Assembly (NCBI GenBank): GCA_013239625.1
Contig: MU053652.1
Coordinates: 3,213,902-3,277,901 of the forward strand
Source: Lama guanicoe
Lineage: Eukaryota
Reading direction: 5' to 3'
Length of the DNA stretch: 64,000 nt
This document shows positions 1 to 62,774 of the stretch, in pieces (positions within the stretch are counted from its first letter, which is position 1; each line of letters opens with the position of its first letter). The notes beneath the pieces are model-generated. The model was not told the origin of the DNA, searched no databases, and saw only the letters and a program-made list of their open reading frames with translations. A program made the position numbers and the translations under genes.

Positions 1-3000
1 GGAAGAATCACTGCTGTGCACCACCAGCCTGCCCCCCTGGGCTGCCCTCTCCCCTTGCCCGCCCCTGGCTTCCAGCAGTTGCCACTGACATTTGTTCCTC
101 AAAGATCCCAGCACTGTCCTCTTGGAACCATGCAGTCCCTTCAGCTGACACGTCTCAAACCCCAGTCTACTTTCCAGAGTTCTAAATTCCATTTTCTTAG
201 ATCTGTTCTCCCTCTGAATCAAGAATCAGTGTTGAGTGTGACTTTCTTTTTACGTAACTTCCTAAAGCATCCCTCATTCATTTCAGTGTTTTATGTTACT
301 TGTTTTCAAAGTGCTTAGTGTTCACTGTGTTACCGCTGAACTTTGGGAACCTACTCATTGGAGTACACCTTTTTTTTACACATTTAATATTTTGTAGAAC
401 ACACTCTAACCTTTTCCTCTCATCCCTTGTCCCTCTATTGCACTCTCATTGCCAGCTGTCTTCTGTCTCTTCTATACCTTGTTGAAAACTTGAACCTCAG
501 CTATAAAAAGGTACACATACCCATAACCCCCTCTTCTTAACCTGATTTTCTTCTCATTCCCACTTAACATTTTCTCCTCTTTTATTGATACTTAATATGG
601 TTTAAGTTTACATACTGTGACAAGTTTGTCCAGCCCCCTTACTCACTCTTTGCCTCCCTCGCACGCCCTGGGCTTACTGTACTCTTTTCTTTCACTGTCT
701 TTGTCTGTAATCTGTGTAGTGTTCCTCTCCTTTGTCCCACTTTTATTTCCTCTATTATTGAATAAGGAGATTTTCATCTCATTTTTGTTTCTTCTCATGG
801 ACTCCGTTAGTCCTGTGTGTAACTCTAGGTCCACATGTCTATCTTGTACCTCTTTCTCTTCTCTGCTGTGTTTAGACCCGCTGCCTTATCTGTCCCCCAT
901 TCCATTTGTCCAGTGCCATCTTTCTCATGAAATCAGAAGTCCTTTCTAGATATGGATGTGCAATTTTCAATCCCATTCCATGGCACCCTTTCCCCCATGT
1001 CACCTGAATTCCTCTTTATCTATTTCTTAACCTCTTTTCGCCTTCCTTTGTTTAGAATTGTATTGAATGTGCAACTCAGTCTGTCTGTCCCACTTTGCCC
1101 TCTTCTAATATTCTGCTCTAATGTATGTATTTGCCCTCTGACTCGCTTCCATCCTGCCTTCACTTGCTTCAATACTTTTGGCCCATCTTTAATCCTCTGT
1201 CCACTTCCTTCACTAATGCACTACTTCTACTGCCCTCAGTAAGGGTCTCTTCATTGTGAAACTGCTTTGCCCAATATTTAATCTACTTACTCTGAACTGT
1301 CTCTTCCAGACATTGCTCTTTTTACTTAGTTTCTATCACTGTAGTCTTCCTTGTTCCATTAGATTGTTAGAATGCCAAACCCTGTTTTTACTATGCCGTT
1401 CCTCACATGATCTTTCCCATCTAAAGTTTAATTCTGCTTTTCCACCCATTTTCTTTTTTTCCCCCCATTCTACCTTTTATTAGCTATCCATATACTGAGT
1501 ATGTACCATTCTCTATACATTCACTAATACCATGCTCTTTGGTTCCTCTCTGTTTTCTACATTCATTGCTCAATCCATTTCTGTATTTCTTCTTTGTTAC
1601 ATATTTTGCTGAATTGCTTTGGTTTTCTATTCATTCCACTAGGATCCCTGTAACTTGCCTCGTTTTAGGTCCACTTTACTGAACCTGTCTCTAACCTTTC
1701 TGTTGACTGCACTTTTTATGCAAACTTAGTTTCCTGGATACTGACCTTCTTATGTCTCACTTTCAGTTATCACTTTATCTCCCCCCCCTTTCTTCCTTTA
1801 AGAAATGCCTCACCACACAATTCTCTTCCTGACTCAGATCCTTCACAAGTACAAGCAATTTTCATTATCCTTGCTTTAAAACATGCTGAATAACAGTTTT
1901 TGTTAGTAAACACTGACACAGCAGTATCTTAAATTTGAGAAAGCCCATAACCATCTTCCTTTAAAAAAAAACTATCATATTTGCTCAACCATCACAAAAA
2001 CACCATTATAAAAACTTTTAAGTATTTCTTATACTATAAACCATTTTAAAGGACAACCATGTAATTATTTAACATAAAATTCATTCATTAGTGTGCAAGT
2101 TTGTTATGTAGTACAAAATGACCCCATACTATGATATGATTGTAATTGCATTCTCCTTTAAACTGCCTGGAATAATAAAAGGTTCTCAAGAGAAATAACA
2201 AGTACATATACATCTTTAAAATACAACATATGAATAAGAAACTTTTGGGAAACATTTACTTACCAACTGGTGAGCTGCTGGAGGTGTTCCGCAGATATTG
2301 CAGGGAAGATGACAGGACTAATGCACAACATATTTAAAAACTCGGAGCACAGGAAGGAAGCCTATCAGCAAAAGAACTATGACCACAGCAAACATACACC
2401 ATCCCGAACAGACCTGTGAACTCTGAAGTCTGCCAGCACAAGAATGCTAACTCACCAGACCAAGTTCCCCGAGCACATACACAGAGAAAAACTTTTCATG
2501 TTAACAAGTATTCTGATAGTAGCAGAGAGCTGGTGAAACCTGCATTCCTTCCTCTGGTCTCAGTAATATTTTCCATTCTGCACCTCGCATATTTAAAATG
2601 TGCCCTAATGCGTACATCCCTTCTCCAACTAGCATCTTCTCTCCCTTCCCCTTTCCTCTTTTTTTTAATGTAAGTCTTTGCAGTTGCTTCTTCCACTTTT
2701 AGCCAGTCCTGACATGATTCTTTAACATCTCAGCAAACTAACATCACACTCATAGGTGGGTCTTCCATAACTCCTTTTGAATATTTGCCCTACCAGATCT
2801 TAAATATTTTCCTCATCTTTCACCCAGAGACTCTATAATATATCAGTGAATGCAGTGTTATTCTCTTGAGGTTTAATATCATGATCCTCAACCACTCCTC
2901 AACCGTAGTATTCATTTGTTCCACTAGAAAAAGTATCCAATCCACATCTTCTAAAAGTTCAATCAATGGTGATGTTTTTAAGATTTCCACCAATGGCTTA

Positions 3001-3012
3001 TCAGGATTGATC

Positions 3013-3187
3013 TTTTTTTTAAAATGTCATGTTTGTTTTTCTTTTTTATAATTTTATTTACTATTATTTCTGTGGAGGTAATTAGGTTTGTCTATTTATT
3101 TATCTTTAGAGGAAATACTGGGAATTGAACCCAGGGCCTTGTGCATGCTAAGCACGCACTCTACCACTTGAGCTACATCCTCCCCCT
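3013..3187 (-). mobile_element. tRNA-derived SINE, camelid vic-1-like
   Basis: The - strand has GGGGGAGGATGTAGCTCAAGTGGTAGAG...GGTTCAATTCCC (A and B boxes), CCTAATTACCTCC and an A-rich tail. TSD ggattgatc at 3004-3012 and 3189-3197. Confidence 0.85.
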
Positions 3188-6100
3188 GGGATTGATCCTA
3201 ATCCATCACTTTTAACCTTTCCTAGCAAGCAATCACTTCAGTCGTAACTTTCCCACTAAAACTTCAAGAGCCATCCCGCCCAGGTCCTGTTCTTTTTCAG
3301 ACCCCAGATCCTCCTTCATTCTGCATAGAGTTCTGAGACTTGACAGTTGTGTGTTTGTTTCATTCACACCTGATCTGTCTTGTTGCCATTCCATCTACTC
3401 AGAACTGCTCTCTAATTCATATAAGGCCCCTTTACTTACTTGCCATCCTCTCTACTTTCTTTTTATTCTGTCATGACCTTTGGCCTAAGTATGGAGCAGT
3501 AGCTGTTTCTCCCATCAGTATGACTATTTAAATAATGTCTTTCCATCCACAAGCAACTTGCACATTGGTCTTCTATTCCTTTTCTCCTTTCTTCTGCTGC
3601 TGCAAACTCCCTACATTTCCTCCAGCATTCCTTCTTCTTTCAGCAGAATCATTCTGGTGCATCTAATTCTCTCTTCTGGAATGTACACTTTTGATATTCA
3701 GCACTTAGAATTTAGCCTTCATCTTCCTTACTTCCTACACTCTGTACTGAAATCTGTTTCCACTCTCCATTGAGTCTGGACCTTCCTAAGATTCCTGCTC
3801 CAGCCTATTTGAAGTCACATTTAATCACGTTTAATCACTCTCTAACTTCTCACTCTGTTGACTACACTGATTGCTTCAAATCTTTTTCCAGCAAAGCTTT
3901 CTGAGCAGCAACACATCATACAAGTTCTTTCTAGTGATATTCTCACCTCTTTCTTCAGTTGGTTGCCAACTGCCTTACCATACAGCTCTTCACTGAACTT
4001 CTGATTCTGGTCTCTCGGTGTTCCTCCTCCTGGCTTTCTTCAGTGCCCTTCCCTGTTCAACATTCTGCAGAACTGCATGCTCTGCACCTCAGCCTATAGC
4101 CTACACTCCTTCTCCTCATTTAGATTTCAGCCTGAATTTTTTTCTACTTTTTCCTTCTTTATCTTTTTAAAAATACATGTCTCAGTGGTTTCTCTCACAG
4201 CCAGTCCTAACATGATACTTTAATTTCTGAAGACTTTACCATCGTACCTCAACGAGGTCTTCGTGATTTCCTTTATTTGCCCTATCATATACACACATAT
4301 AATATTTTCAGCTTCCATCTCTAATCACAGTGATTACATTAATTAGTCTTCTCTTGAGTTATACTCCCACTCACTTCTTACCAAATACAGTTCATCTTTT
4401 CACCAGATAAACTACCACCCACATTCTCCAGTTGGTCAAACCAACATTGTTCAGGTTGCTGTCAATGGCTTTTCATCAAGATTCATCCTAATCTTCCCCC
4501 TCTAACTGTTTTTATCAACCAAGCCCTTTCATTAAAATGTTCTGTTCCCCCCAAATTCATACACCTACTACCCTACTTTTTTATATCTTAAAATTATGCT
4601 ATATATGACTGAGATTTTTTTAAAGAAATAAAACAATGTACATATAATTGAAACTTCCTTTGTACCACTTTAGAATTATTTACCTCTCTCCCTTCTAAGA
4701 GAAAATCACCAAATAATCTGATACTTTTCCTCATACATATTTTATAATTGTTATAAATATTCATGTATCTCTAAATAGGTAATGTTATCTTCGAGGGTTT
4801 TAAATATATGTAGATATATATAAATTCTTAAAAAAAATTTCTCCCATCAAGACTTTAATTGCTAGTCTACTTTCTAACTCCTGTTCACTCCTGTGCAGGC
4901 CTTTACATCTCTCTCATTATATATACCACTCATTGTAATCTTTAACACCAAACAGTTTTAACCAGTTAGAACTCTCCTGAAATCTGACAGACTTCTCCAT
5001 TCTGGTCTCTTTAGTCCACGTCTTATTTGCCTTTTTGCTCCTCTAACTACTGAGAACCCCACTCTAATTCATGCAGTGCTCCCGTTACATAGATTAAGAC
5101 CCTCCTCTTCTTTCTCATTCTGTCACACTCTGCCATGTCTTCACTAGCCATTCAGCTGCTACCCTGTATCACAGCAGTGGAGACAATATTTTTCTCCTAG
5201 GGTTTACTTCCCTAATGATTCCCAACCATTCCTCAAGAAACACAGTATTCTCTATAGACAAACACTGGCCCATGTTCCCAACTGGTCAATCCTGATGTAT
5301 TTTAAGAGTACTACAATGTCATTTTAGGAGAATTCATCATAATAAAACTCCCCTTAAACTTTCCTGTTAACTAAAAAAAATCTACTCACAGAATTAATGC
5401 CCGTCTCTAATTCCCACTTCTCTCCAGGTCCTTGAAACTCTGTTAGATGTACCATTCATTACCATTGGGCCTTCCCATCCAATTTGAATATTCAAACCCA
5501 TTTCAAGATCTCCATTCTTTCCTAAACTACTTCTGCTGGTTTGGTGCATCAGATAAAGTAATTATCACTTAGAAAATCACAACATTTTGTAGTCAACTAA
5601 ATTAATTAATAAAAAGTAATGTCTTAATCAAAAAGTGTTCAGTGCATGTGATACTACAAATCATAAAGGTCTCATATGTTAGCCTAAGTTATAATTTATA
5701 CGTCTGTAGTTAATATTAAGATCATAAACTAACCTTACTTTGAGTTAGTTAATCGTCTTTATATATAAGGACATTTTAATTTTAAAATACCTGTGATATT
5801 ATTTGCTACATTATAGAAGAAAAATCTCCATTCTGGGTCTCTTTATTACACACCTGATATGTATTGTTGCCACTCCGTTTACTCTAAAGTCTTCTCTAGT
5901 TCATACAGTGGTCCTTTACGCAACTGACAAACTCTCTTCTTATTCCAGCACAACCTTGGTCTAAATATGGTGCCATAATCCACTAGTCAATTGATGCCAT
6001 TTCTAAGATCATCCCTTCACAACTGCAGGAACCTTCACTTTGCTCTTCCATTCCTTTCCTCCTGTTTCTTATTTTGCCTTAGAGAAACATGCTGCCATGT

Positions 6101-7573
6101 CCCTCCTTTCAGCTTCCACCTGCATAGACATCATGCTTACAGATTCAGCTGTCCCTTTAGGTAGATACTCCCCTCCTGTCAGGCACTGGCTGCTCCACCC
6201 CTGCCGTCTCCCCTTTGTGTCCTACATTGTTTACTGCATCCGTTTGTACTCTCGGTGCAGCATAAACGACCATAGGCTTCCTGCCACTGGCCCGTCTTGT
6301 GTGTCCATCCCACTTAGCCTGTTTCAGACCATTCACCATATTGAAACCTATTATTTCTAGTATTTTTCCAAAAAAGAACCCTGGACAGCAAAACCTCATA
6401 CTCCAATTCTTACTTTGCTACATTTTTACCTTACTTTCTCTCCATCTTAATGCATAACTCTGACAAATATCCAACTCCCATTTCCTAATGTTCCCATTTA
6501 GCCCTCTTTAATGCCCTTCCAGGTTTATTTTTCTACACTGCATGTTCTGTACCCTTAGCCTCACTCACAAACTTTTTCCTTATTTAGCTTCCAGCCTCCA
6601 TCTTTTGCTCTTTCCTTCTTTGCTATTTTTTTCATACCAGTCTCCTCAGCTGCTTCTCTCACTTTCTGCAAATCCTAATATATTTCCTTAATTTCTGAAT
6701 CTATCTTTAACATCCCTCTTATAGGACTTTCTTTCCAATTTCCCTCTGGAGAATTCCCCCATGTATCTTAACCTTTCATAGTGATGAATGCAGAGTCTTT
6801 TTGAGGTTTCCTCCTCTCCTTATCCCCATTCTCTTCCTCACTCAACACCAATTTTCTACTCTTTAGACAAGTCTTCCCATTAGATTGTTTCTAACCTGTC
6901 TTCTCCCTTTCTCATCAAGGTCTTCCCCAGGCCTGGTGCCGTATGCTTCCCATTAGTATCAGTGACCATTTCTGTGTCAATATTAAGTGATACCTTGTCA
7001 TCTGGCGGCAATTTTACTTTTGCTATTTTACTCCTTTTTTATTTTGCCTTAGAAAACTACCTTCTGTTCAGCACCGCTCCTTCATTCAGAGACTACGCAC
7101 ATACACATCACTCCTAATACAGTGCTCTTTCTAGATAAACGGATTCCTCATATTCAGTGTTCACTGATCAGACTCTGTGGACTGGATTATAGCTCCTTCC
7201 CATGTTAGCCTCTCCACACAGCTTCCTGAACAGTTCCCCCTCATAACCTCAGCTCTTATTTAGCCACATTCCCTCCTTGCTCCCTCTCTCTGAGTGGCTG
7301 TGATCTGGATTAACATAAAATCACTGTTAAAGTTCCCACCCTCCCGTGTCCCGACAGTTGTCACTCTAGCGCTATCTGATGCCCCCACTAGCGGCCACGT
7401 TACTCTCCTGCAGGTCCATTTTCCCCTTTTCACTCTCCATTCTCTCCTTATCAACTATCCTCTCTTACAAGTCTCCTCAGTTGCTTCTGTAATTTTCAGC
7501 TACTCCTAATATGACAGCTTGCTAGCAAAGATTTTTTTTATCAGAATTACTTTTAATCTGCCTTCATCTAAAG

Positions 7574-7720
7574 CAGTGGCTCTCAAACTGCAGTTTGTTA
7601 AAATACACACTGCTGGGCCCCACCCCAGATTTCTGATTCAGTAGGACTGGTGGGGCCAAAGAATTTATATTGCTAAATATTCCTAGACAGTGCTAACAGA
7701 ACACATTTTAAGAAGCACTG
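7574..7720. mobile_element. MER5A-like hAT-Charlie MITE
   Basis: TIRs cagtggctctcaaa / tttaagaagcactg, internal ctgggccccaccccagatttctgattcagtagg, and a degenerate 8-bp TSD atctaaag / ctctaaac. Confidence 0.8.
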
Positions 7721-10700
7721 CTCTAAACTTTCCCTTCAACAAGCCCTTTAATTAAAAATTTCCCACCAGGGCTTCAAGAGCAAGTTTGCTTCTTTTCAGA
7801 CCTTTATTTCTCTCCCATTTTGTCCACTAGTCATTGCAGTCCAGCTTATACCCCACATACGGACCAGCTAGGCCCATGTTCACATCTGACGGGATTCTTC
7901 ATACTGGGATTCTGCATGGTGCATGGAGTTTTTCTTAGTACCAGGCCACCTACTCAGAATCGCTCTCCAGTCTCTGCAACACTCCTCTTAGCTTTAGCCC
8001 CACTTCTTCTGTGTCTTTTGGCCCAAATATGGGATCTGCTCCCTCCAGTCAATACCTGTCATTCTTCGGATGACCTTCTTTAATCTGGGGGCACCTGTAA
8101 TGTTACTCTCCCATTCCTTTTCCCTTGTTACCTGTCTTGCCCTAAAGAAATATACTACCTTATATCTTCAGTTCCTCTTCTTTTTGCTACCATCTATATT
8201 CATTCGGGTGGATTCAGTCTCCTCCAGAGCGGCACTCCCTAGCCAGGTTCTCTCCCCAGTAGCTGTCTCGGACTTTCAGAGAATCTTCACATGACAGAGT
8301 AAATAAGAATAACTTTAATGTGGCATTTGCATGATACGCATTTGTATCTCCCTTTGGTGGTTTGCCCTCCCACATAATTAGTTACATATAGTATAATTTC
8401 ATCTACCATCTGTACATGGAAATAACAGAAGTTTTACTCTGGAGCTTACGTGATCCTTAGCCAGTCATCTCCCAGGATTAGTCATCCATGCTACAGACAA
8501 ATGACTCAAGAGATTTTATCCTCGTGTCTCTAAGGTTGCTGGTGTGTTTTTACATCAGGGTTCATATCTTAATCCATCTCCTTCTAACCCTCCTACCTAA
8601 AACTTCCCACCAAAACTTCCCATATTGTTCAGACCCTATTCTTCCACCATATGTACTGCTTTTCACAGTCTGGTATTACAAGCCATCATTTGACCAAGCC
8701 GACCCATCGTAAAACCTCCCCCATGGGAAGCTCTCTCCCTCGTCTTGTCTGCCCGTGCCACTCCACCTGCTCTCTGCACCTCTTTGTATGGTGCTCCCTT
8801 TACAGAGCATCCAGTCTCTCTCCTTCCTCATCTAATCATGACCTTTGGTACAAGTACGGTGCCGTATCCCTCCTGCCAGTACCTGCCAGCTTCAAAGGAC
8901 CCCATCTCTTCTGTAGGCTCTTCCACCCTTTCCTTGACTGACCCTAGAGAAACACCTGTGCTACCTACACAGTTACTCGGCTTTTCAGCTGCCATCTTTA
9001 TATCATTTCTCATGGACTGAGTACTGTTTTCTTTCATGTTCCTTGTTTCCTCCACACTATTCTGAATACATTTGCCCTCTCAGTTCGGTGCCGACTTTCA
9101 TGGGATTCCTTCCACTGGCTGTGGCTTGGATACATCCCATTTAGAATCGAACATTTCACTCCACTGGTCACACTTGTTGCTTCAAATACCATTCAAGCAA
9201 AGGTCCCCAGTCAGTGAGGGACTCCCTCGTTAATACCAGCCTTAGTAGCCACTTCCACCTCATTCTCTCTCCTTCTTTGGTTGTAATCTAGCTTAGCTCA
9301 CACCTCTCTACTTCATATGCAGCCCTGCCATTTTCCAGTGTTCCTCATTCTGGCCCCCTTTAACGCCCTTCCCTACTCACACCGTATAGGCGACACCCCC
9401 GCTCAGATCCCGTGTCTTCCCTCTGTTTTCAGCTTCCAGCCTCCATCTTCCTTCTCTCTTCCTCCATGATATTGTCATACAAGTCTCCCTAGGAAATGTC
9501 TGTCACTTTTAGCCATGGCAGGGTCACTTCTAAGAACAACCAGTTGTAATGGCGCACTATGCAGCCATCTACCTACCATCTCTTACCTGCCCGTCACCCT
9601 TTCACTTACCATCTCTCTACAGAAGGAATGGATGCAGATTACCTCTCTTCAGATGGATTGCCTCAGAATCTTCACCCATTCCTCATCTACTACAGTCATC
9701 TCTTCTCTGGACAAACACCTGTTCTCACCCTCTAGTAAGGAACCTCATCTCTGTAAAGTTGCCAGCAATAGGTTCTTCTCAGCATTCATCATAAGCAGCT
9801 TCTTTGAAACTTTTCTGTTACCCGAGTCCTTTAACAATTTCCCTCCAATTGGTGCTTCAGGAGCTAATCTACTACTCAGGTCCTCACTCCTCACTCTCTG
9901 TATAATCCTCATTGCAGTACAGTCTCTACATCCAAAATGTGACCAATTAGACCTGTTTTGAGCTCTGCCAGGATTCCCCATTCAAGATCCTAATTCCACA
10001 CCTGCTCTGCCTCAAATGCTCGCCACTCTGTATAGCATTTCCTTTCTTTGCTTCTAGTCTCTTTTCTTTCTTATTCCCTTGTGACTTTCGGCCCAAGAAT
10101 GCTGTCTTGTTCTTCCAGCTGATGTCTGTTATTCCTTACCCGCTCCTTACCATCTGAGGGCAACTTTAACCTTATTTTTCTATACCTTTCTTCATTTCCT
10201 CCCATATTTATCCTTGAGAAAAACCTTACCTCTAGCATCCCTCCTGCCACATAGGTAGCGTTTTCCTGACAGGCATGTAGTCCTCATTTGGGGCACCCAC
10301 TGCTCGACTTGCTTTCATCTGCCTTGATTTCCTGCACACTTTCCTGCATCCGTTCCTTCTCGGCTCAGTCCAGACCTGTGTGGATTGCTGCGGCTGGCCT
10401 GTGTTTCAGGTCCATCCCTCCTGCCCTCTTTTGCCCTAGTGACCACATCCTTTTCTGTAACTGTCATTCCAACAAAGCATTCTGGGATCTCCTCATGACC
10501 CCATTTATTTAGTCCCGTGATGCCATATGCCACACTGCATGCCCTGCACCCCAGCCTAATTCACACGGCTCCTTCCTTTCTTAGCATCCATCTTTTCTCT
10601 GATTCCCTCCAGTGGTTGAGACCTGGCAACTCCCACCAGGGTTCCCGTGCTGATTCTGCATTTCTAAGTTTTTCTTCACACAAGTCTCCTCAGTAGTTGT

Positions 10701-12216
10701 CTCTTATTTTCAGTCAATCCTTACAAAATAAGCCTCATTTCTGAGAACAATTTTAATGTACATCTGCAGGGTATTCTCCTCTTACTCCCTCTGATTTTCT
10801 GCCTTGCTTTGCTCATGAAGCTTTCATCTTTAAATATGGCAGTGGACTCAGCATTGTTATGTTGGCATGGAAAGGCTCTCTCACCCCCCTCCTCATCACC
10901 CAGCGTTACTCATCCTTTCTCACAACAGTGACACTGCTCCCAACGGTTTTTAAGGGAGTTCACCTTAGATTCCCTGTAACCTCACTGTATTAACCAAACC
11001 ATTTGTTCCAGGAACATTATTTGTATTAATACCATTCCTATTTGCTTCCTTAATCCATTTCTCCTTATCACTTAGATACATGTCTTCTGTCTTTACTTAC
11101 ACGTAAAATCCAGTTTGCCCAGTCTGTGATCTACCATTGTTCCTGATTGTCTCCCCCTTTTCCTCTTCCTCATTTGCCTGCGGCCTCCATGAACGAAACT
11201 AGGGTTCATATCACTATCTACTAATCAACATCTATCCTGCCTCTCTGTTTTTAATTTGATCATGACCTTTGTCTATACCACAATCCCAATTTGCTCCTTT
11301 AATTTTTTTAAACACCTCAACTGACCCATTCTAGGTTTGTGTTTATTTCTACTTCTTTTCTTCTTCCTCCTTCCTCCTGCAGAACACCCTACCTTAACAA
11401 AGGTCATTCTTTCATCAGTCCCCTACTGTATTAAAAGATTCTGTGGTCTCAATAGGTACACTCTTTCCTATATACAGGGGTCAACCCACTACTAACATCT
11501 ATTAAATTTACTTGCTCTCTGAATTCAGATCTATTCTTCATAGGATTCCTACCAGTGGCTTTAATTATCCGTAACATTTCAGTCTCTCGAATGCCTCAGC
11601 TCATTAGAGCCTGCTGGAAAATATCTAGTCTCCTTCATCTGAAATATAAGATATTTCAGATTTGTTCCTAAACAGATTTTCTTCTTAGCACCTGTGTATT
11701 AGCATCTCTCTTGCTGTTTCCAATTACACCATGGCCTTTCTGGCCTTTCTTTTAGCTTGTGTACCTTCCTCTGCTTGCCAAAGCCCCTTTGCATCTTTTG
11801 AAATCCAGTTAAACTGTGTGTATATCCTTACAAATTTTTTAAACTTTTCCCAGGCTGTTAATCCTGCACTCCCATGCAGCACTCCATTAAACCTTATATT
11901 AGAGAACCTGTGACACTGAATTGTAATGTCATAGGTGTTATCTAGGTAGATCTTATCCAATTCCTAGACAATGGGCTCGTGAGGAAGGAGCTCATGTCTC
12001 AGTCATCTTTTTATCTAAGGGTCTGGCACATTCGTTTATACCTTTTACTGTAAACATATTGACTTTTTCCACATTTTGGATGAAGGGAGTGAGTTTAAAT
12101 TAAGACTGAGCAAATAAAAGTCTCACTAGCCAGCCTGTCATATATGGTCTTTACATTTGAGTTTATTCTCTCTTGTTCCTGCCTGTCCCCTAAATAACTT
12201 TCCAACTTCCCGATTT

Positions 12217-13057: not shown

Positions 13058-13155
13058 TTGCAGGCACCTTTAGCTGCACCATGAAGTTCACCGTCCGGGA
13101 CTGCGACCCTGACACGGGGGTTCCAGTGGAGGAGGGGTATGATGATGAGTACGTG
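13058..13155 (+). CDS. COPG2: Coatomer subunit gamma-2, internal exon (4th from last; ~exon 21)
   Basis: Acceptor ttcttttttcctccAG and donor GTG/gtgag. Translates (V)[32 protein letters not shown], a gamma-COP appendage sequence. Confidence 0.96.
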
Positions 13156-13936: not shown

Positions 13937-14075
13937 CTAGAAGATCTTGAAGTGACTGTGTCTGACCACATTCAGAAGGTAATGAAGCCTAACTTCGCTG
14001 CTGCCTGGGAAGAGATAGGAGACACCTTTGAGAAAGAGGAGACCTTTGCCCTCAGTTCTACTAAAACTCTTGAAG
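13937..14075 (+). CDS. COPG2: COPG2 exon (~22)
   Basis: caccAG/CTAGAAGAT...CTTGAAG/gtaag. Translates [46 protein letters not shown]; phase matches neighbours. Confidence 0.96.
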
Positions 14076-14371: not shown

Positions 14372-14470
14372 AAGCTGTCAACAACATCATCACATTTCTG
14401 GGCATGCAGCCCTGTGAGAGGTCAGACAAAGTACCTGAGAATAAAAATTCCCATTCCCTCTATCTGGCAG
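14372..14470 (+). CDS. COPG2: COPG2 exon (~23)
   Basis: acacAG/AAGCTGTC...CTGGCAG/gtaag. Translates (E)[32 protein letters not shown]. Confidence 0.96.
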
Positions 14471-14924: not shown

Positions 14925-15055
14925 GTATATACAGAGGTGGCTGTGACCTGTTGGTGAGGTCCAGGCTGGCCTTAGCAGATGGAGTGACCATGCAGGTGAC
15001 TGTCAGAAGCAAAGAGGGGACACCTGTAGATGTTATCTTGGCTTCTGTTGGATAA
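14925..15055 (+). CDS. COPG2: COPG2 terminal coding exon (~24)
   Basis: ttttctctcAG/GTATATAC. Translates (G)[42 protein letters not shown], then TAA at 15053-15055. Confidence 0.96.
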
Positions 15056-24418: not shown

Positions 24419-24512
24419 CGAATACAGCAAATGAGAGGAGGTCAGGAGCAATAATGAAAAACGGTTTATGACAAACATTTTTCGTTATTGCTCTTGACCC
24501 CCGCTCAAAAGA
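24419..24512 (-). ncRNA. MIR335: pre-miR-335 hairpin in MEST intron 2 (5p arm 24475-24497, 3p arm 24440-24461)
   Basis: The - strand reads UCAAGAGCAAUAACGAAAAAUGU (miR-335-5p) and UUUUUCAUUAUUGCUCCUGACC (miR-335-3p). The arms are complementary and the position in the host intron is the known one. Confidence 0.97.
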
Positions 24513-27460: not shown

Positions 27461-27609
27461 TGCCAACAATTTGTGTGTAACATTATGGCAGTTTGGTCAA
27501 ATCATTCTCACTTGGGTGCTCATTACTAAAATGTCAAAAAATACTTACGCCTCGGTGGTAAGACACTGTTAAGTTCTAGTCACACCTATGCGGTTAACTC
27601 ACGCCACAG

Positions 27610-28280
27610 CGACACCAGGGTCTTCAAATCCTAAATCGCGGCAGGGTAATACCCAGGTCTTGAAATCCTAAATCACACCACTGCAACCCGGGGTCTCGAA
27701 ATTCTAAACCGCACCAAGGCGATGCCGGGATCTAGAAACCTTAAATCGCGTCAGGATGATATCGGCGATCTCCTAAATCATGCCAAGGTGAAACCCGGGT
27801 CTAGAAACACTAAATCGAGCCAAGGCGATGCCCGGAGTCTACAAATCCTAAATCGCGTCAAAGAAAACCCCAGGTCTAGGAACGCTAAATCGTACCAAGG
27901 TGGTGCGAAGGTCTAAAAATCCTAAATCACGCCAAGGCAATGCCGAGGATCTAAAAATCTTCAATCGCGCCAGCGCGACGCAGGGTCTAAAAATCCTCAA
28001 TCACATCAGGGCGATGCCACGGTCTAGAAATCCTAAATTACATCAGAGTAATACCAGTGTATAAAAATCGGAGTCCAGAAATCCTCAATCGCGCCAGGGC
28101 GATGCCGAGATCTAAAAATTCTAAATTACATCACAGCAATACCAGGGTCTAAAACTCCCAAGTCACTCAGGGCAATGCTGGGGTCTAGAAATGCTAAAAT
28201 ACGCAGGGCGACGCCAGGGTCTAGAAACTCTTAATCACAGGAGAGCAATTTCTAAATCGAAGTCTAGAAATCCTAAACCA
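27610..28280. repeat. ~37-bp tandem repeat array, ~18 degenerate copies
   Basis: Approximate consensus GGGTCTAGAAATCCTAAATCGCGCCAGGGCGATGCCA. The CCTAAATC anchor recurs at ~27630, 27667, 27703, 27740, 27772, 27810, 27847, 27884, 27921, 27959, 27995, 28032, 28083, 28120, 28157, 28193, 28230 and 28272. Confidence 0.92.
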
Positions 28281-28542
28281 GGGAGATCAGGCGTTCCGAA
28301 CATTCTACTGTCTGCAGGCGACACATCCCCTCCCAAGTAGGTAGGTAGAGCGGGCTCAGAGGACAGATATGCACGCTCCCCGATCCCAGGAGATTTTCCC
28401 TCCACTGCAGGAGTCATGGTCTGGTAGCCCCAGTTCGGACCAAGTCCCACCCGCTAGCCCGCATCCAATTTGGGGACAGCGGCTCCAATCCAACCAGCCA
28501 CACGCACACACACACACACCCTGCGCGTGCCGCGGCACCCAC

Positions 28543-28586: not shown

Positions 28587-31500
28587 GCCGCCTGCACACC
28601 CGCCGGGAGCAAAGGGCGCGCCGCAGCACCCGCAGCCGCGCAGGGTCGGCCGGCAGCTGGGCGCAACCCACAGCTCGCGAGGGCTGCGCGGCCGCGGCAA
28701 GCCGCGAGCAGCTATCGGGGCGTGCGCTGCGGCAATGAGCGAGGCGCGGTTGCCGCAGAGGAGGCGCCGCCCGCCGAGAGGCGCCGGGATGCGCTGGTGG
28801 CCGCCGCAGCGCCGAGCGAGCGGGCACCGACTTTTAGAGCCCACCCGGGCCCCGCCCCTGACCCGCCCACTGCGCTGCAGTGCCCCTCCTGCTGCAGACA
28901 CCGCCCCTCCCTGCAGCCCCGCTCTGCTGCGAGGGTGAGGCGCCCCCTCCCACAAAAGCTCCTGCGGGGGCACCTTCAGGGGTGTTGACCCCTCCCATCA
29001 CCCCACTGCTAGCTGACGGCCCCCAACTCTAGCCTCAAGTTCTGCGGCAAAAATCCTCATCTGGCAATTAATGCCTCAGGAAAAGACCACAGACCCCTGA
29101 GACCCCAACACTCCCCTTAGACCACCCATAGGCCCCCCAGCCCCAGAGGTGGACGCTCAACCTCAAATACGGTGGACCCAAGGCTGCCGCTGTGGCACCC
29201 ACGCCAACAGGGGCTCTGAACTGCGCGAGTGGCCAGGCCAAAGCAGCGGTCGGCCAGCGCCCAGACACCTAGGTCCTTAACTACGGGTACCCACCAAGGG
29301 CACAGCCAAGGGCTAGGAAGCGACAAGCTCGACTGGACCTACCGCCCAACTAATCAGTGATTCATGGGGGCAGCCGCTCTGGAGCAAAAAGGGCCAAACT
29401 TGCGGGAAGTCTGGGCTTTCTCGCTCGGCTGCCGCAGCGCGGGCCCCTTTCCCCTGCGGCAGCGCAACGTGGCGGGCAAGCCAGAGCCCGGCCGCAGCCC
29501 TCCCGCGGCACCCGCTCCCAGCACTGGCCCGTCCCGCGCCAGAAAGAACAAATGGCACGATTATGAGACTAGAGCTCCCTTTACTTATGTAAGATTGAAT
29601 CACAATGTGAGGGCCCCAGTGGTACAGAAAAGAGGGAAGGATTTTTTTCCCTTCATCTATAATCCTTTAAAAAGCATCTATTACGCCTTTAAAAAGTATA
29701 GAGAATTACAGTGTCTGTGCTCGTCTTCTGGCTGTAAATTGAAATTCTGACGAACGTGCAGGCTGCGGCGGGCGAGCCAGGCAGCCCGAGCAGGGCCGGC
29801 TCCCTCCAGCGGGGGCGCTGCAGGCCTCTCTTCCGCTGGCGCCCGCAGGGGCCACCCCGCTACTCCGCTCCTCCAGCGCGGGCAAGCAGGAGTCTGGACA
29901 TCTGGGCAAAACGCCGGGCTGGGCGAGCCCACCGGGCACCTCAGCGCGTCAGGGAGCTGAGGGCCACCAACCAGACATAGAAGAAACCACCATTTATAAG
30001 CGTGTCACCAAAATGTGTGGCGCGGTCCAGGGTACGCTTCTACTAGTCTCGATTCAGAGGGTCATGAAACCAATGTTTATTTAGCACCTCTTGCGCCCTA
30101 AGGGGCAGGGATGCAAAGACGAAGGAGAAACAGCCCCTGGCTCCACAGCAAGATGCTGACCATCCGGTGGGGATACCACCCAAGAACTGTCGCTGCTTAA
30201 ATTTCCCCTTTAATTTTCTTGCAGCATTTTGTGACAGGTTCCCCCCCCCCAACATGCAAGCCCCTCAAAGGCTGAGCCCAAGCATTATTCACCTTTTGTA
30301 TCCCCAGAGCCCGCCTCGGCGCTGGCCACAAAGCAGGCCCCTAATAAATACTGCATGAATAAGTACAAGAATTTGAGGGCGCACAGGGGAGGAAGTAATT
30401 AAGGGGGGGGGAGGGTTGTCTTGAATGATGAATAGACATTTACCAGAGACAAAGAGCATTCCAACCAGAGGGGACCGCATTCGCGAAGCACTGGAGACCC
30501 AGGACCGCACAACCTTTGGGGAAAACTGCAAGTCCTTTGGGTTGGGGCGCTGACAGGGAAAAGATTAGGCTAGAAAGAGTATTTCATCCTAAGGAGTTTG
30601 CAATTTGTCCTAAGGAAAAAAGAGAAGCCACCGATGGATTTAAACCCTTTATGGCCTTAATTGGTTACTTAACGAAATTTAAATTACTTCCCTTAACAAG
30701 GGGAGGATTACCTCTCTTTACTAACCACCATCTTTTAAGGGCTGAATTAATTAATTAACAAAATTTAAATCGGTCCTTTCAACAGAATAAAGACTTTCCT
30801 ATTTTAACTATTAATAACAAACTCGGCATTATATTTTTTTCCATATTTATTATCAGTGGAACCTGAGTCCTACGAACAATTCCGCACTTTCATTCTCACC
30901 AGGCCAGAATCACCAACCTCCAAGATGAAGGCGATTTTGTATTTAATGGACTGAGTGCTCACAAAGGATCTTATTCTGAAAGCCCGGGAATATGTCCACC
31001 CACATGGAACAAGTGGGCAGACAGGAGGGAAGACCCCTGGGGGGAGGGCCGGGAGGCGGAGGGATCAAGGGAAGCTCTTGAAGACAATGGGAATCCTAAA
31101 TCAACACTCAGGAAAAACCCTCCTGGACAGAGTGCTAGGAAAAACCTCCTTGGAGAAGGCGGGATCGAGGTGGAGAAGAACTTCAAACCCGAAACTCGTT
31201 TAGGCGAAGGAAGCGTTCCTATTTGGAAGAACCTTCCAGCACAGAGGCAAAAACGTAGTGGATACTATGAGTGAGATCGGCCTGGCTAAAGCCCGGAGAA
31301 AATGCTAGCGAGAATGCCCCAGGAGCCAAACAGTTAATGGGTTTTCTAACTGTGCCTGACTTACAGAGAGAAGCTTCCTCCACCAGGGGAGAATCTGGCC
31401 CAAAGTATAAAAACCATTGGAGCGCCTGAGAAAACATGTAACCGAACATAAATCCAAAGCCTGCTTCTGGCTGGCACTCAGCGCACCCTTTCAGTTCTTG

Positions 31501-31849
31501 GATACAAACACCACCCTTGACCAACAGCACATGCAGCAGCATTCCCTCAAGCCGTAGCTTATCATACATTCCTGTCACATTCCAATTCTCACACAGTCCC
31601 ACATAATAAGGCCTCAGATTTACGCAAAGATGAGGGTAGAAAGCTTCGCATTTATCAGCTCATCGATGTGCAACAGCGGTGTGAGATCAGCAGGGCTGGT
31701 ACCACGGGTTCAACTATCTTATTTTTCGAACCCCAGTCTCAGGCCCGTAATATGACAAACACAAGGATATTTACAGAGAAGACAGGACAGAAGTGGGACT
31801 GCCACTTTCAAGCGCCGTAATTATCGATTCAAATTAACTAAAGAAGTTC

Positions 31850-32630
31850 AAGATGGGGGAAACCTGGTTGAACAGCAGCACATAAAGAGACTCAGGATTT
31901 TAGCCGACAGTGAGTCAATGTGATATGGCTCCAAAAGAGCCACTGTAGACTGTAGATATAATTAAAGAAGCACCCAGAAAAAGCTAATCCTGCTCTGTTC
32001 TGCTAGTTGGACTTCACAGAATGTATTTTATTCCACAGAGCAGATATTAAGAGACACATGAACAGAAATTTGTTCAGAGAAGATCGACTCAAATGCTTTG
32101 CCAGTTCTGTCACTGAAGGTGTAACAGCTCTCATATTTTAAGCTCCTACTACAGCATAAATCTTCACCCAATTTATCCCTAATTCTCATAATAACTCAGC
32201 TAGATGAGTATTTTCATCTACATTTTTCAGAGAAAGATACAGCAGCTCAGAGCACTGTTAGTATGTGATGGGGCTGGGAACTGAACGCAGATGTGTCTGG
32301 CTCCAAAGCTGGCGTTCTTTCCACTACCCCACACTGCCTCCCTGTTTAAAATAACCGGGCATGTTTAGTCGGAAGAAAAGAAGCCTTGTGGAGTGAGTGG
32401 AAGAAGGAAATGTGTTAGCAGTCCTCAAATATTTGTGGAAGCAGCATTAGACATTTTATTCTGTACGGCTCCAATGAGTGCAAATTGTAGAGAAACAGAT
32501 GTCGATTCAACATAAAGAATTTTCTAACAGTCGGGGGTGTCTAGAGAGACTGGGTAGCTCAGCCATTTTGAAACATGACAAGTTGGCGTTCACTAGGAGT
32601 CGGATGAATGCAGGAATGACCTTAAAGGTC
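31850..32630. mobile_element. Ancient L3/CR1-like remnant interrupted by a MIR (~32150-32335)
   Basis: aacagcagcacataaagagactcaggatttta...tcaatgtgatatggct is CR1-like. catttttcagagaaagatac...gggctgggaactgaac is a reverse MIR. Confidence 0.5.
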
Positions 32631-33479
32631 TTTTCCCATGTGATAAAAACTAAAGCTCAAAGAGGTATTAAAACTTGGCCAGGGTGACCCCTCCACTGAA
32701 GGGTCAAATCCACAACAAGATCTTCCCTGGTTGTCCCTCAGCCCAGAGCTCTTTGTACAACATGCTGTTCCATGCTGAGGGCAAGAAAAACTGAAGAAAT
32801 TATCCATACAATCACATCAACCTCCCTCTCTATCAATTTAGCCCATATATCCCCAAAGCAACTGGTGTCTTCCTCTTCAAGCTCATTTTTGGGTAAAAGT
32901 CTTTGGCTGAAAAAAGAGTTCAAAAGAAATGTGGGAGAGGAGAGAAGCAAGGGAGCTGAATAACCCATTAACCAGATAAGATAAACTTCACAGACAGCTA
33001 GCTGTTTCCAGAGATAACAGTATTGCTGGGTACCTCTAAAGTATCTTTACAAACCCAGTCCATTACTGGGCATATCCCATAATCCCACGTCTGGTACTGT
33101 TCTGCTGTTCCACACCTGGTGTACATCTTACACACTCACAGAGATAAATAGGTTGAAGGATTCGAAATAAAATCATATCTTACATTTTTATAGCTCTTTA
33201 CCCTTTCATGTGTAGTATCTCATCTGATGTTCACCACAGTCCTCTAAGGAAAACAGCTTTCTTTCAGACTGACAAGCAATTTCCTAGCTGCCTGGGTAAG
33301 AAAGGGCTACAGCCCACAACCCACTCTCCTTTCTTTTTTTCAACTACTTTCCACATTAAATTATCCCTCCAGCCTGGATGAGTCAACCAGAAGCAGGTGT
33401 TTCGCTTCTCCTCGATTTCTACCAACACCTCACACCTTCAGCTGTCCTCCCCCACCGTGCCCTCCAGTGCCCCCACCCT

Positions 33480-34300
33480 CGCCACTACAGCAGAGCTTTG
33501 TCCCGAATCCCGTTGCTACGCACTTGCTGGGCGCAGCCCCGCACTGGCCGCGACTCCGAGCGAAAACCACCCCGGGCCGGCGCCGTGTGGCCGCGCCCCC
33601 CACCCCTCTCGCCCGCGACACTCGCCCAGGCCCGAGTGGCTGCGACCTTCCCAACCACCAAGGATGTCCCAGAGCGGGAAGGCACAGCCTCCCGGGAACT
33701 CGAGACCCGTTTCCCTGGAGGGCTGGTCTAGCCGACTGAGTGATTCAATGTGGGAAGGGGAGTCAAACCTCGGGCGAGGGTTAGGGGACTTTGTATTCTC
33801 CGCCCCGAGGTTCTGGGAGATGTTGACCGAGGACCTAGCTCGCGTGGCCCTCGAGTGGCGCGCACACCTCGTGCGTTCACCCACCAACCCAGCGCAGCCC
33901 CGCACGCCCCAGCCTGTCCTCGCGGCCTCCTGGGCCACTATTACTCAAGGTTTGGCCCCCAGGATTGGTGTGGTCCACGCACACTAGCCACATACCCACT
34001 CATCGGGTGGGCTGGGAGGGTGAGGGTAGAGGGCCACTCCTTCCCGCCTGTCTCCTACCTCATTCAGGTAAGACCTGGGATACAAGACTCCATGTTTGGG
34101 GGACCTGGTTGCGCATGCGCTCCCTGCGGCTGGAGCTTCGCCTGACCGGTCTTCAGGGAAGACCCGGCCAAGCCACCGAATACCCGGCTCTGGGCTAGAG
34201 CGTCGCCACCTCGGCGCACCGGCCCATCGCCCCCGAGCCCACCCTGTGCTGCAGCTTTCTCCCTGCCAGGCGTGAGCGCCACCTATTGTGAAGGGTATGA
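33480..34300. promoter_or_regulatory. MEST: Upstream CpG island, probable alternative MEST promoter (non-coding first exon)
   Basis: CpG-rich island ~5 kb upstream of exon 1, with an NRF1-type palindrome TGCGCATGCGC (34110-34120). Position resembles the human upstream MEST promoter. Exon boundaries were not determined. Confidence 0.65.
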
Positions 34301-34469
34301 AATGGCAGGCCCCGCTTTGAATAAAGGATTGAATAAACGAATACACTTTTATACGGCCTAATCTGAATACTTTTACATGATATAGCTGAAGGCCAAAGGA
34401 GTGATATTTTGATAGTTATTAAGTCGGCCGAGATCTTTGGCGAGACTTCCACATCTCAGACATTACCCT

Positions 34470-35600
34470 AACTTCATAGTTATTCTAAAGACTCCCAAAT
34501 CTATGTCTCCAACCCTATCCTCTACCCCAAACCTTAGATCCATGTGTTTGCCTGTCTTCTGTTCTTCTTGACATGAATGGCACACACACATCTACTCAAC
34601 AAGGGCCAAGTTAAATTCACTACCCTTTCTCTGTCTCTTCCTTCCCACACTACAAACTGACCTCCCCCTTCCCTGGAATCTGAGCTTCCTTCCATTTCTC
34701 TGTCTTGCTTAATGGCATCGTTATCCACTCCAGTCTCCTACACTCAGTCACCAATACCTGTGGCATAATGGAATGAGGCTAAAAAGCCAGGCAGCCTTGG
34801 GTACAAATCTCAGCAAGTTCCTTCCTTCCCCTTCCTTTTCATCTTACCTCCCAAGTACCTTGATTTCATCCAGCCTCTCTACCCCTTCCCCTTGCTCAGT
34901 CCTCATTATCTCTCACCTGGACTACTGCCTCCTAAATGGTTTCCAGGTCTTCACCATCACACCATTCTAATCTGTCATTCACACACCTGCCAAAAGTGAT
35001 TTTTCTAAAATGCAAATCAGATCACATCTTTCTTCTTAAAACTTTTTACTGACTCCTGTTCCCAATGTTGAATCCAAGCTCTTCAGCTTGTCATGCAAAA
35101 CACTTCAAAATCTGGCTGTTTCCTTCCTCTAGAATCTTCCTTCTTACCGCTCCCACCTCACCTGTCCCCCTCCCCCCAAACTTCATAATCTGACCAAACT
35201 TTGCTAATTGTAGTTTCTCCCAAAACACTGTGGTTTCCATTCTCAATGCCTTTACACGTGTTCTTTCCCCTACCAATTACGTTCTTTCCCACCTCGGCTA
35301 CCCAAAAAAATGCCATTCTTCAAAACTCAACTTAGTTGTCACATCCTCTTGCAAGCTTTCCCCACAACCTTCCTACAGAAATATCACTCCCTCTGTGCTA
35401 CTTCTGTCCCTGGTACAAACATTTGTTGACCACTCTGTGCTAGACTCTGTGCTTAACTCCTCCTTATGTATATTATATTATTGAATTCTGATGATGATGC
35501 CATAAAAGAAGTATGATCCTAATTCTACCAATGAGAAAACTGAGGCTTCAAAAGATAAGGGAGTTCGCCCAAGGTTGCAGAGGTGGAGCAAAAATTTGAA
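34470..35600. mobile_element. L2 fragments followed by a MIR
   Basis: tctctcacctggactactgcctcctaaatggt...aaaatgcaaatcagatcac (L2); atgagaaaactgaggct (MIR, ~35530). Confidence 0.65.
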
Positions 35601-60725: not shown

Positions 60726-62774
60726 AACAGGGTCCCTCTTCCATGACCCCAGCTGTTGACGAGGCCACGTCAGTTGTCTTGCAGAACATCATGCTGTGTG
60801 AATTTGTTCAGCTTGTTCCTCCATCTCCTGTTTTTCATATAAAATAAAAGTTATATCTAAACTATATATTCAAGTTAAATATATTTGGCTAGAATGTATC
60901 ATAGGCTGTACTGTATATGCCATATTGAGTCACATCGCAGGACACATAACATCTGATTGACTGTCTATTAGCAACACTAAGACTGATCCCAGGATATGAG
61001 AGTGATGACGGTCTGACCCCGTCTCTGTGTGGTTTCATCACCTTGCCACTGGCAAGCTCTCTGTGGTGTGCTGCTTGGCACTACACAACTATCAGCTCCC
61101 CAACAACCATTCAGCAAATAGTCTTTTAACACCAATTGATGCGCCTGGCCTGAATCAATATTTTCGTTAGAGTTTCCCCCAAATCGTTTTCCTTATTGTG
61201 TAATTCCCTCTATATTTATTTGCTGGCATTCTTCTGGTACTTTTCAGCGAGGACTACTTGCTTACCCCGAAATATAGTTTCTGCTGGAAAGGGAGGATAA
61301 ACGCTTAACCCCTCCTCTTTAATTACAAATTTTCAGGGATTTTTTTTTCCTTAAAATAGAGTTCACCAACCCCATCTTTCTTTCCTCTATTTTCAGTGGA
61401 GTTTCCTTTCAGCCTGAGTTTGTATTCAAGGCCTCTCTCCAACCCAGCATTGATCCTTTTGGCATTTCCTCTCAGCAACCCCATTAACTTAGTCCCTACC
61501 TTTTCCTAGAACTCAAAGCACCCCACAGAACACCCACAGGACTACTGGAATCATTAGCTGAGGCCTTAGGCCTACAGAAATTGTCCAAGCATGCATTTCA
61601 ACAAGACTAACTCAACCAGGTAGAGGCTGGTCTTCTTTTCCATCTTCTATGCTAATTGTGCCAAAGTCCTTGACAGGAGAAGCCCTTGCCAGACTCATAT
61701 CAACTCTAACCATGTTCTCTGAAAGTATTTTGCCTAATCCCTGGCCTTTGGAAATAATTACTAAGGTAAATAAACACTTTGGCAAGGAATCAGTGTACGG
61801 GAAGCTGAGAAGTGTATCATCAGCCCAGGCCAGACTTTCAGGAGGAGGGAGAGTCCTGAGGAAAGACCCTGCACATCAGCATGGACTGTGGGTCCAAGAG
61901 CCCTTTTCCTCTATGAAGAAGGTGTGAGTTGAAGCGAGATGGGCTCGAACCTGGAGGAGCTATGGCTGGCTTGTGATACTTTGTCCTCAGCCCATGCCGA
62001 GTGAGGGTGCAAACAAAGGGAACAGGACCTTGCTGGCAGTCTCTGCAAGAGCTGGGAGAACCAGCACCTCTGCAGCCCCTGGGGTGTATGAACTGACTGA
62101 TGTATAAACCAGAACACCAGCACATTCATATACAAAGAGGACACTCCTTGCCAAAGGGACCAGATGTTCATGCTGACTGGTCAGCGCATTCTGTCCTGTT
62201 GGAAAATCTACATGGAAAGCCAAATTATAATCAAGAGGTTGTTTGCGAGCATGAAATTAGAACAAAGGGAGGGAATTGGATGAGCTCTGTGGCATCCATA
62301 GGGATATAGGGTGGACTGCATATTTGTGTCAAATGGTCAAAAAACAACTCTTTCCCTTGACGAGGTTGGAGACATGATGACAAATGTTTGTTCCTTGGCT
62401 CCACTTTTCAGCACTCCCTGCAGACCACCCCCCTTCTGCTCACATATTCTTCAGCTGTTAAGGCCATTGATTAGGTTACTGCTTTGCTCCACATTCCATC
62501 ATGCCTTGATTAAATTTCCAGGCGCTGCAACATCCTGTTTCTTAGGATGACATTTGCAGACATTTATTCACATTCATTGTGTGCAGATTTCACTAGCTTA
62601 GCAATCAATGGCTAATATTATTTACCGGTTTGGGGGATACTTAATGATTGTGCCTGATGTACTGATACACTAGACAGCAGAAAAAAAGGTTGAGAATGAC
62701 CAGTGTGATAAAGGGAAAGACTTCCCATGTTTTGGTCTCCTGTGTGCCTTCACGAGCACTATCATAGAATTTCA

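Follow-up and report, generated by a model that had tools for sequence, protein, structure and literature searches.

What occupies the end of an intron that, in other species, is crossed by an imprinted antisense RNA, and whether its sequence matters to that RNA, are the questions raised by COPG2 in Lama guanicoe. We analysed a stretch of 64,000 nt (the window; assembly GCA_013239625.1, contig MU053652.1, positions 3,213,902 to 3,277,901), within which the 3′ end of COPG2 on the plus strand converges on MEST on the minus strand. An initial annotation had proposed that an ancient, highly diverged tandem array lies in this COPG2 intron, and that it could be either a repeat scaffold of the imprinted RNA or the relic of a small-RNA or exon cassette. 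The array itself proved to be real, while the functional readings were not borne out by our tests. The explanation that we favour as probable is an old local amplification that survives as a neutral relic, namely a fossil tandem array of kilobase-sized units that lies next to MEST, in the 3′-terminal part of COPG2 intron 20, and that imprinted read-through RNA may cross passively.

Evidence for the array

When positions 1–11700 were compared with themselves by blastn, 19 off-diagonal high-scoring segment pairs (HSPs) were found on the plus strand at E<1e-3 and none on the minus strand, the best scoring 179 bits. The controls, 100 shuffles that preserve dinucleotides, yielded at most 2 HSPs each (50 global shuffles: mean 0.02, maximum 1; 50 local shuffles in 200-nt blocks: mean 0.04, maximum 2) and a best score of 41 bits, so that the off-diagonal ladder predicted by the initial annotation is present. 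Under permissive blastn settings it appears as a same-strand ladder of 60–75% identity with matches up to 930 nt, and 400-nt tiles each map to as many as five other places. A profile built from eight units spans 1375 positions, and a profile made from any seven of these units found the eighth (8/8, E 1e-23 to 1e-108). Tandem Repeats Finder, which kilobase-unit tandem arrays of such age escape, reported nothing with a ~1.4-kb period in the window. This is a degenerate local tandem array of same-strand, head-to-tail units, well above chance.

Several details of the initial description need revision. The period is ~1.4 kb according to the profile, not ~1 kb; spacings of 0.8–1.6 kb are indeed seen, but they do not represent the unit size and arise from internal deletions and insertions in ~1.4-kb units. 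The four motif blocks (A–D) on which the description was based are largely at their claimed sites, but are merely points along one continuous homology that runs through the units from end to end. By regular expressions and alignments, block D was located at 3395, 5047, 5879 and 7950, block A at 3471, 8836 and 11260, and block B at 4073, 6538 and 10535; block C was found by regular expression at 6639, 7469, 9481 and 10682, and by alignment at ~2672 and ~4178. A possible block B at ~12 has no profile match, and a block C at ~8250 and a block D at ~8760 had been overlooked.

The claim of at least eight highly diverged units is matched by eight partial units of ~1.4 kb plus a more decayed ninth piece (unit 0; Table 1), which scores 19.9 bits against 0.8 bits for the best of 30 local shuffles. 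Unit 8 is clear in its first third, and a weaker piece with block A follows at ~11234–11564 (tile match, E 3e-3). An extent of 1–11700 was too generous: the clear array covers 2630–11400, and 1237–1831 is the only significant signal upstream of it. The plus strand of the array is 64% C+T (A.23, C.28, G.13, T.35), and since region 1–2629 has the same base composition, the array may continue there, and past the edge of the window, in units of greater age or decay. The first 1900 positions are pyrimidine-rich, with 1237–1831 their only match to the unit profile. Directly before unit 1, an A-rich segment (1900–2600) interrupts the pyrimidine skew; it has no match elsewhere in the window.

Age and decay of the units

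Trees of the units are star-like, with tip branches mostly of 0.3–0.5 and no bootstrap value above 78. The best local alignments between units give 66.7% identity and a Kimura two-parameter distance of 0.45 over 5064 columns; pairwise identity in the full unit alignments is 41–58%, the divergences from which are probably inflated by misalignment. Four insertions, a short interspersed element (SINE), a miniature inverted-repeat transposable element (MITE) and two AT-rich inserts, are each private to one unit. The star-like tree, the ~0.45 or more substitutions per site and the private MITE and SINE suggest that the array is the product of an old burst of amplification followed by decay.

The SINE in unit 1, which we take to resemble a camelid SINE, has relatives at 46.8 and 54.4 kb. 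The MITE in unit 5, presumably a MER5-like (hAT-Charlie) element, has a second copy at ~47.9–48.05 kb that is 68% identical over 114 columns, and the distance of 0.41 between the two copies is equal to or below the divergence of the units. Because other units show the empty site, the MITE was inserted later than the amplification. MER5A has been grouped with the Charlie elements (PMC5753468), and a copy of MER3, also hAT-Charlie, is common to all 11 placentals examined in one study (PMC3758187). The same study describes a MER5A insertion restricted to sirenians, a sign that transposition of this kind of element continued past the divergence of the superorders; the MITE alone therefore does not prove a pre-placental age.

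Outside mammals, a COPG2-like locus (L001) has a corresponding intron of 966 bp with no match to the unit profile; the locus has 28 of 32 exon 21 residues in common and may be orthologous to COPG2 or to COPG1. None of 15 COPG-like loci, all of them non-mammalian, matched the unit profile at E<1. Sampled words of the stretch were found in four organisms at shares of 0.94–0.99, that is, as near-identical sequence. We infer that the array belongs to the mammalian lineage and dates from roughly the placental radiation or an earlier time.

Tests for a function

A paternal antisense RNA in this intron, mentioned in the initial annotation for mouse and human, has been reported for mouse, human and pig, in the last case in the hypothalamus (PMC3287194; 10.64898/2026.03.13.711300; PMC12969872). 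Mouse MestXL is ~45 kb long and keeps most of intron 20 in the mature RNA (10.64898/2026.03.13.711300); it is described as working by transcriptional interference, sustaining the maternal bias of Copg2 (PMC3287194). The part of intron 20 that MEST read-through enters first is the one that holds the array, and two RNA-seq runs contain about half of its words (see below). These facts would suit a role as a repeat scaffold, in which the array provides the paternal antisense RNA (MestXL/COPG2IT1) with a site for an RNA-binding protein in each unit and thereby helps to retain, stabilise or localise that RNA, on the model of NORAD, Xist or Firre.

The units themselves argue otherwise. With units re-cut so that block C was internal, the best 40-column window exceeded the mean by 0.136; in 20 simulations of neutral decay this excess was 0.130 ± 0.022, and under this cut none of the four motif blocks stands out above the neutral expectation. 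Folding z-scores average 0.01 on the plus and -0.09 on the minus strand (147 windows per strand); values below -2 occur in 6 and 3 windows, respectively, the lowest being in the MITE, and no hairpin recurs between units. Ten RNA-protein motifs were tested on both strands, and none is enriched on the antisense (minus) strand, where the lowest fractions were 0.06 and 0.065 of 200 shuffles. As the units are also disrupted by large deletions that differ from one to the next, we consider a scaffold function unlikely.

In its ~1.4-kb spacing and its imprinted setting the array is similar to the snoRNA and miRNA clusters of imprinted loci, and block C, which follows a pyrimidine run and contains AG, resembles a 3′ splice site on the plus strand. 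Either feature could mean that a small-RNA or exon cassette was once repeated here and left the array as its relic, for example a snoRNA/miRNA array or a tandemly duplicated COPG2 exon. In an Rfam search, though, only the tRNA part of the SINE reached the gathering threshold within the array, and sub-threshold matches (E≤5) do not recur between units. A profile of exon 21 plus flanks from 6 loci gave no array match below E 5, and block-C profiles do not match exon 21 despite a striking resemblance to its start; duplicated copies of exon 21 were thus rejected as the source of the unit. A coding relic was rejected as well. Match autocorrelation at lag 3 is -0.001 ± 0.017, gap lengths fall steadily (50, 20, 14, 8 and 5 gaps of 1–5 nt) with no excess of 3-base gaps, and no stop-free stretch is long beyond shuffles. 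Six-frame Pfam searches gave nothing at E<0.05 (a lone match at E 0.079 lies outside the clear array), and 12 shorter frames gave no match. The longest plus-strand open reading frame (ORF; 9470–9961) has no homologue among 132 candidates and no usable Atlas match, and the block-A pattern had 0 matches in viral contigs. With neither an Rfam family nor a codon or exon signal, a cassette relic is very improbable.

On the reading that we favour, a neutral relic, events ran as follows. Copying of a C/T-rich segment of ~1.4 kb produced at least nine head-to-tail copies in the last part of COPG2 intron 20; this probably took place within a short period, by unequal crossing-over, in an early mammalian ancestor that lived at or before the placental radiation. 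Homogenisation then ceased, leaving each copy to gain its own substitutions, large deletions and insertions. As far as the tests reach, all parts of the unit have decayed to a similar degree, and no motif, frame or fold has been spared. Antisense transcription of the MestXL/COPG2IT1 type, as known from other species, probably runs across the array, which would supply only length and not a sequence-specific function. Transcriptional interference needs no particular sequence and so fits such passive crossing.

A number of observations weigh against this explanation. Its dating depends on the putative MER5-like identity of the MITE and is weakened by the sirenian-only MER5A. Block C is retained in 7 of 8 units, other parts in 4–6, and an alignment with units cut at this block gave a best window of 0.70, higher than in any of 25 neutral simulations (maximum 0.65). 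These 25 simulations had a lower mean identity than the units (0.48 vs 0.51), the second set being closer; the excess vanished after re-cutting, and a special conservation of block C was therefore rejected, its appearance being attributed to the anchoring of the alignment there. Even decay between copies is compatible with constraint that began after the copies had diverged. Stops on the minus strand are slightly fewer than in shuffles (97 vs 108 ± 5; 99 vs 106 ± 5), and intron 20 of mouse and human has been called “80% identical”, at an unspecified location within the intron (PMC3287194). Two RNA-seq runs from one study contain 0.48 and 0.46 of the sampled words of the array, although these shares are words in strandless contigs that carry no expression level and may include DNA carry-over. 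Altogether 20 of 24 sequencing runs contain part of the stretch; RNA runs with small shares (X18–X20, 0.09–0.14) and X16, the kind of which was guessed, were not used as evidence.

The last such point is the hexamer TGCATG, an RBFOX-type site that occurs 8 times on the plus strand of the array (3142, 4074, 5643, 6539, 7913, 7920, 8328 and 10536) where 1.8–1.9 are expected, and once on the minus strand; 0 of 200 shuffles reach 8, and no other motif and strand exceeded all shuffles. Three of the sites (4074, 6539, 10536) occupy one position of the unit, and imprinting of COPG2 in pig is reported to be isoform-specific (PMC12969872), so that the array might serve COPG2 itself, as DNA or within the sense pre-mRNA, for instance through repeated RBFOX sites that affect neuronal splicing or termination near exon 21. 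Yet this was one of 20 tests, and TGCATG ranks only 12th among 6-mers (p 8e-4), which fails correction for 4096 tests. Moreover, one site lies inside the SINE, the three at a common position descend from a single ancestral site, and of the 6 units in which block B is covered, 3 no longer have that site. We regard a role of this kind as highly unlikely.

A combination of origin and later use also deserves mention, doubtful as we consider it: the array might have arisen with MEST imprinting and read-through in early mammals, be common to placentals and have been co-opted subsequently. An intron of ~1 kb would thereby have been expanded into the body of MestXL, and lineage-conserved sites would make the read-through RNA stable, nuclear or repressive to paternal COPG2. 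Were this true, the array would be a kilobase-unit repeat scaffold in a 3′-extended imprinted mRNA, with constraint to be seen between species and not between copies. Units constrained across mammals would constitute the first sequence-specific element of MestXL/COPG2IT1 and would permit a direct test of interference by transcription alone versus RNA function. If neutral, the array is a clean fossil record of intron growth, in which local amplification in mammals enlarged an intron that had been short ancestrally (966 bp in L001). It would also be a datable marker for the building of the region that MestXL crosses.

Unit source, genomic setting and known parallels

Judged only from base composition, a decayed, sense-strand segment of an L2-like long interspersed nuclear element (LINE) is our leading guess for the source of the unit, and a tentative one. 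A decayed L2-like LINE beside the upstream MEST CpG island (34450–35480) has a similar composition (A.24, C.33, G.11, T.33). The segment at 11.45–12.03 kb, which had looked like an L2 3′ end, was not confirmed as such. In frog, L2 is richest in C, then T (PMC7140322). Profiles of L2-clade ORF2 were built from 18, 120 and 257 sequences (drawn from 20 loci with the L2-clade motif and from 265 proteins, the named members being fish) and scored with frameshifts against the unit alignments. The 34450–35480 copy, the best and sole match of the L2-clade protein profile above 4 bits in the window, served as a positive control, which scored above 30 of 30 shuffles but weakly so (6.9 vs 4.8 bits).

The same results bear on whether the units are tandem duplicates at all, or instead separate, clustered insertions of an old dispersed repeat such as a segment of an L2/CR1-group LINE. 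In addition to the composition, the best L2-profile matches end near model position 770 in both unit alignments and in units 6 and 7, and in one alignment the score was reached by only 2 of 40 shuffles. In the other alignment 6 of 40 shuffles reached it, a first test of the units had given z=0.0, and in a targeted endonuclease test 9–127 of 200 shuffles reached the score over 12 settings. The units share one strand and the same 1.4 kb of sequence and follow one another directly, head to tail and in register. The unit profile finds no further copy in the other 52 kb of the window and no match to the DNA of the L2-like copy; its best outside match (34038–34089; 5 bits, E 0.019 window-wide) was taken as chance. 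Separate insertions are accordingly quite unlikely.

A search for mammal-like L2 proteins through one, probably ill-chosen, frame of the L2-like copy found none among 18 candidates, and the L2 motif had 0 matches in viral contigs. Twenty contigs filed under bacterial genomes (L016–L035) carry ORF2 sequence of animal-type retrotransposons that lack long terminal repeats; they look like host contamination of bacterial assemblies, the best named relatives of one (L027) being fish proteins.

Table 1. Units of the COPG2 array, insertions within them and neighbouring features (window coordinates)
Feature	Position	Strand	Remarks
Unit 0, strongly decayed, partial	1237..1831	+	profile positions 570-1237
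Unit 1, nearly complete, SINE-interrupted	2633..4134	+	leave-one-out E 1e-108
tRNA-derived SINE, unit 1 only	3010..3190	-	Rfam tRNA match 3110-3182; 9-bp flanking direct repeat
Unit 2, first half only (profile 8-700)	4139..5130	+	leave-one-out E 4e-53
AT-rich insert in unit 2	~4545-4820		
Unit 3, without first ~180 positions	5148..6596	+	leave-one-out E 3e-77
AT-rich insert in unit 3	~5515-5812		
Unit 4, internal deletion of profile ~300-650	6599..7425	+	leave-one-out E 1e-23
Unit 5, several deletions, MITE-interrupted	7430..8236	+	leave-one-out E 3e-47
Palindromic MITE, unit 5 only	7572..7720	none	terminal inverted repeats; 8-bp target-site-like duplication
Unit 6, nearly complete	8237..9441	+	leave-one-out E 1e-82
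Unit 7, nearly complete	9442..10593	+	leave-one-out E 5e-86
Unit 8, first third clear (to ~11000)	10643..11564	+	leave-one-out E 4e-23
COPG2 exon 21	13058..13155	+	3′ boundary of host intron; numbering per mouse papers (fourth-last exon)
COPG2 exon 22	13937..14075	+	coding exon
COPG2 exon 23	14372..14470	+	coding exon
COPG2 exon 24	14925..15055	+	coding exon
mir-335	24419..24510		Rfam match
MESTIT1, three Rfam regions	30.9-33.0 kb (30904..32996)		Rfam matches

The placement of the array in a COPG2 intron is upheld by four COPG2 coding exons downstream on the plus strand, with MEST, mir-335 and the MESTIT1 Rfam regions farther on. As four exons come after it, the host intron is intron 20 in the mouse numbering (10.64898/2026.03.13.711300). 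The array cannot be said to fill it: the window shows only the last 13 kb of the intron, and exon 20 lies outside. Elsewhere, two invertebrate-like COPG loci (L002, 407–950, and L007, 54–408) match exon 22 two or three times running, which suggests tandem partial exon duplications.

Three further observations concern the rest of the window. MESTIT1 is described as an antisense transcript, yet its Rfam models match the strand of MEST and mir-335; it may be that they were built on the genomic strand. A diverged, CpG-rich 37-bp tandem repeat (27595–28300), for which Tandem Repeats Finder gives ~12 copies at 67% and which includes an 88-bp higher-order part, adjoins the MEST CpG island at ~28.3–30 kb. 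Its unit length is near 75/2, and it may carry a repeated protein-binding site; tandem repeats adjoining imprinted methylated regions are a known theme. At 61562–61927, stop-free frames of 121 and 87 codons overlap on opposite strands and may be a processed pseudogene fragment or due to chance.

The array has apparently not been recorded before. The text consulted on MestXL, Mit1 and COPG2IT1, which does not include the original Mit1 and CIT1 papers or browser annotation, mentions no array, and PMC3287194 does not contain the word “repeat” at all. In both the mouse and the human assembly this intron once contained a gap (PMC3287194), which may explain why its structure has attracted scant attention.

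Among known systems, NORAD is similar in being an old tandem duplication, dating from about the rise of mammals, of recognisable yet strongly diverged copies inside a long transcript, but its units are ~300 nt and retain Pumilio sites and hairpins (PMC5828396). The COPG2 array has ~1.4-kb units in an intron crossed by read-through RNA and no protected motif or fold, and since a protected motif is what defines that class, we do not place it with NORAD. Xist, Rsx and Firre likewise have local repeats at a locus with an allele-specific long RNA, but these amplify protein-binding sites in short monomers (156 bp for the Firre RRD; PMC6316617), and no such site was found on the antisense strand of the COPG2 array. 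MestXL, Mit1 and COPG2IT1 share the intron, and such an RNA would cross the array if present in this species; the sources available describe them in terms of transcriptional interference, without a repeat array (PMC3287194, PMC13691114 and preprint, PMC12969872). With relics of L2 LINEs the array has in common the C/T-rich plus strand, as in the copy at 34.45–35.48 kb, and a similar depth of decay, but it is tandem, not dispersed, and has no significant match to an L2-clade ORF2 profile or to the DNA of the L2 copy. Macrosatellites and other kilobase-unit arrays also consist of head-to-tail units of ~1–3 kb at a single locus, and live ones are homogenised and highly identical. The copies in the COPG2 intron are only 51–67% identical, and the array is therefore a fossil.

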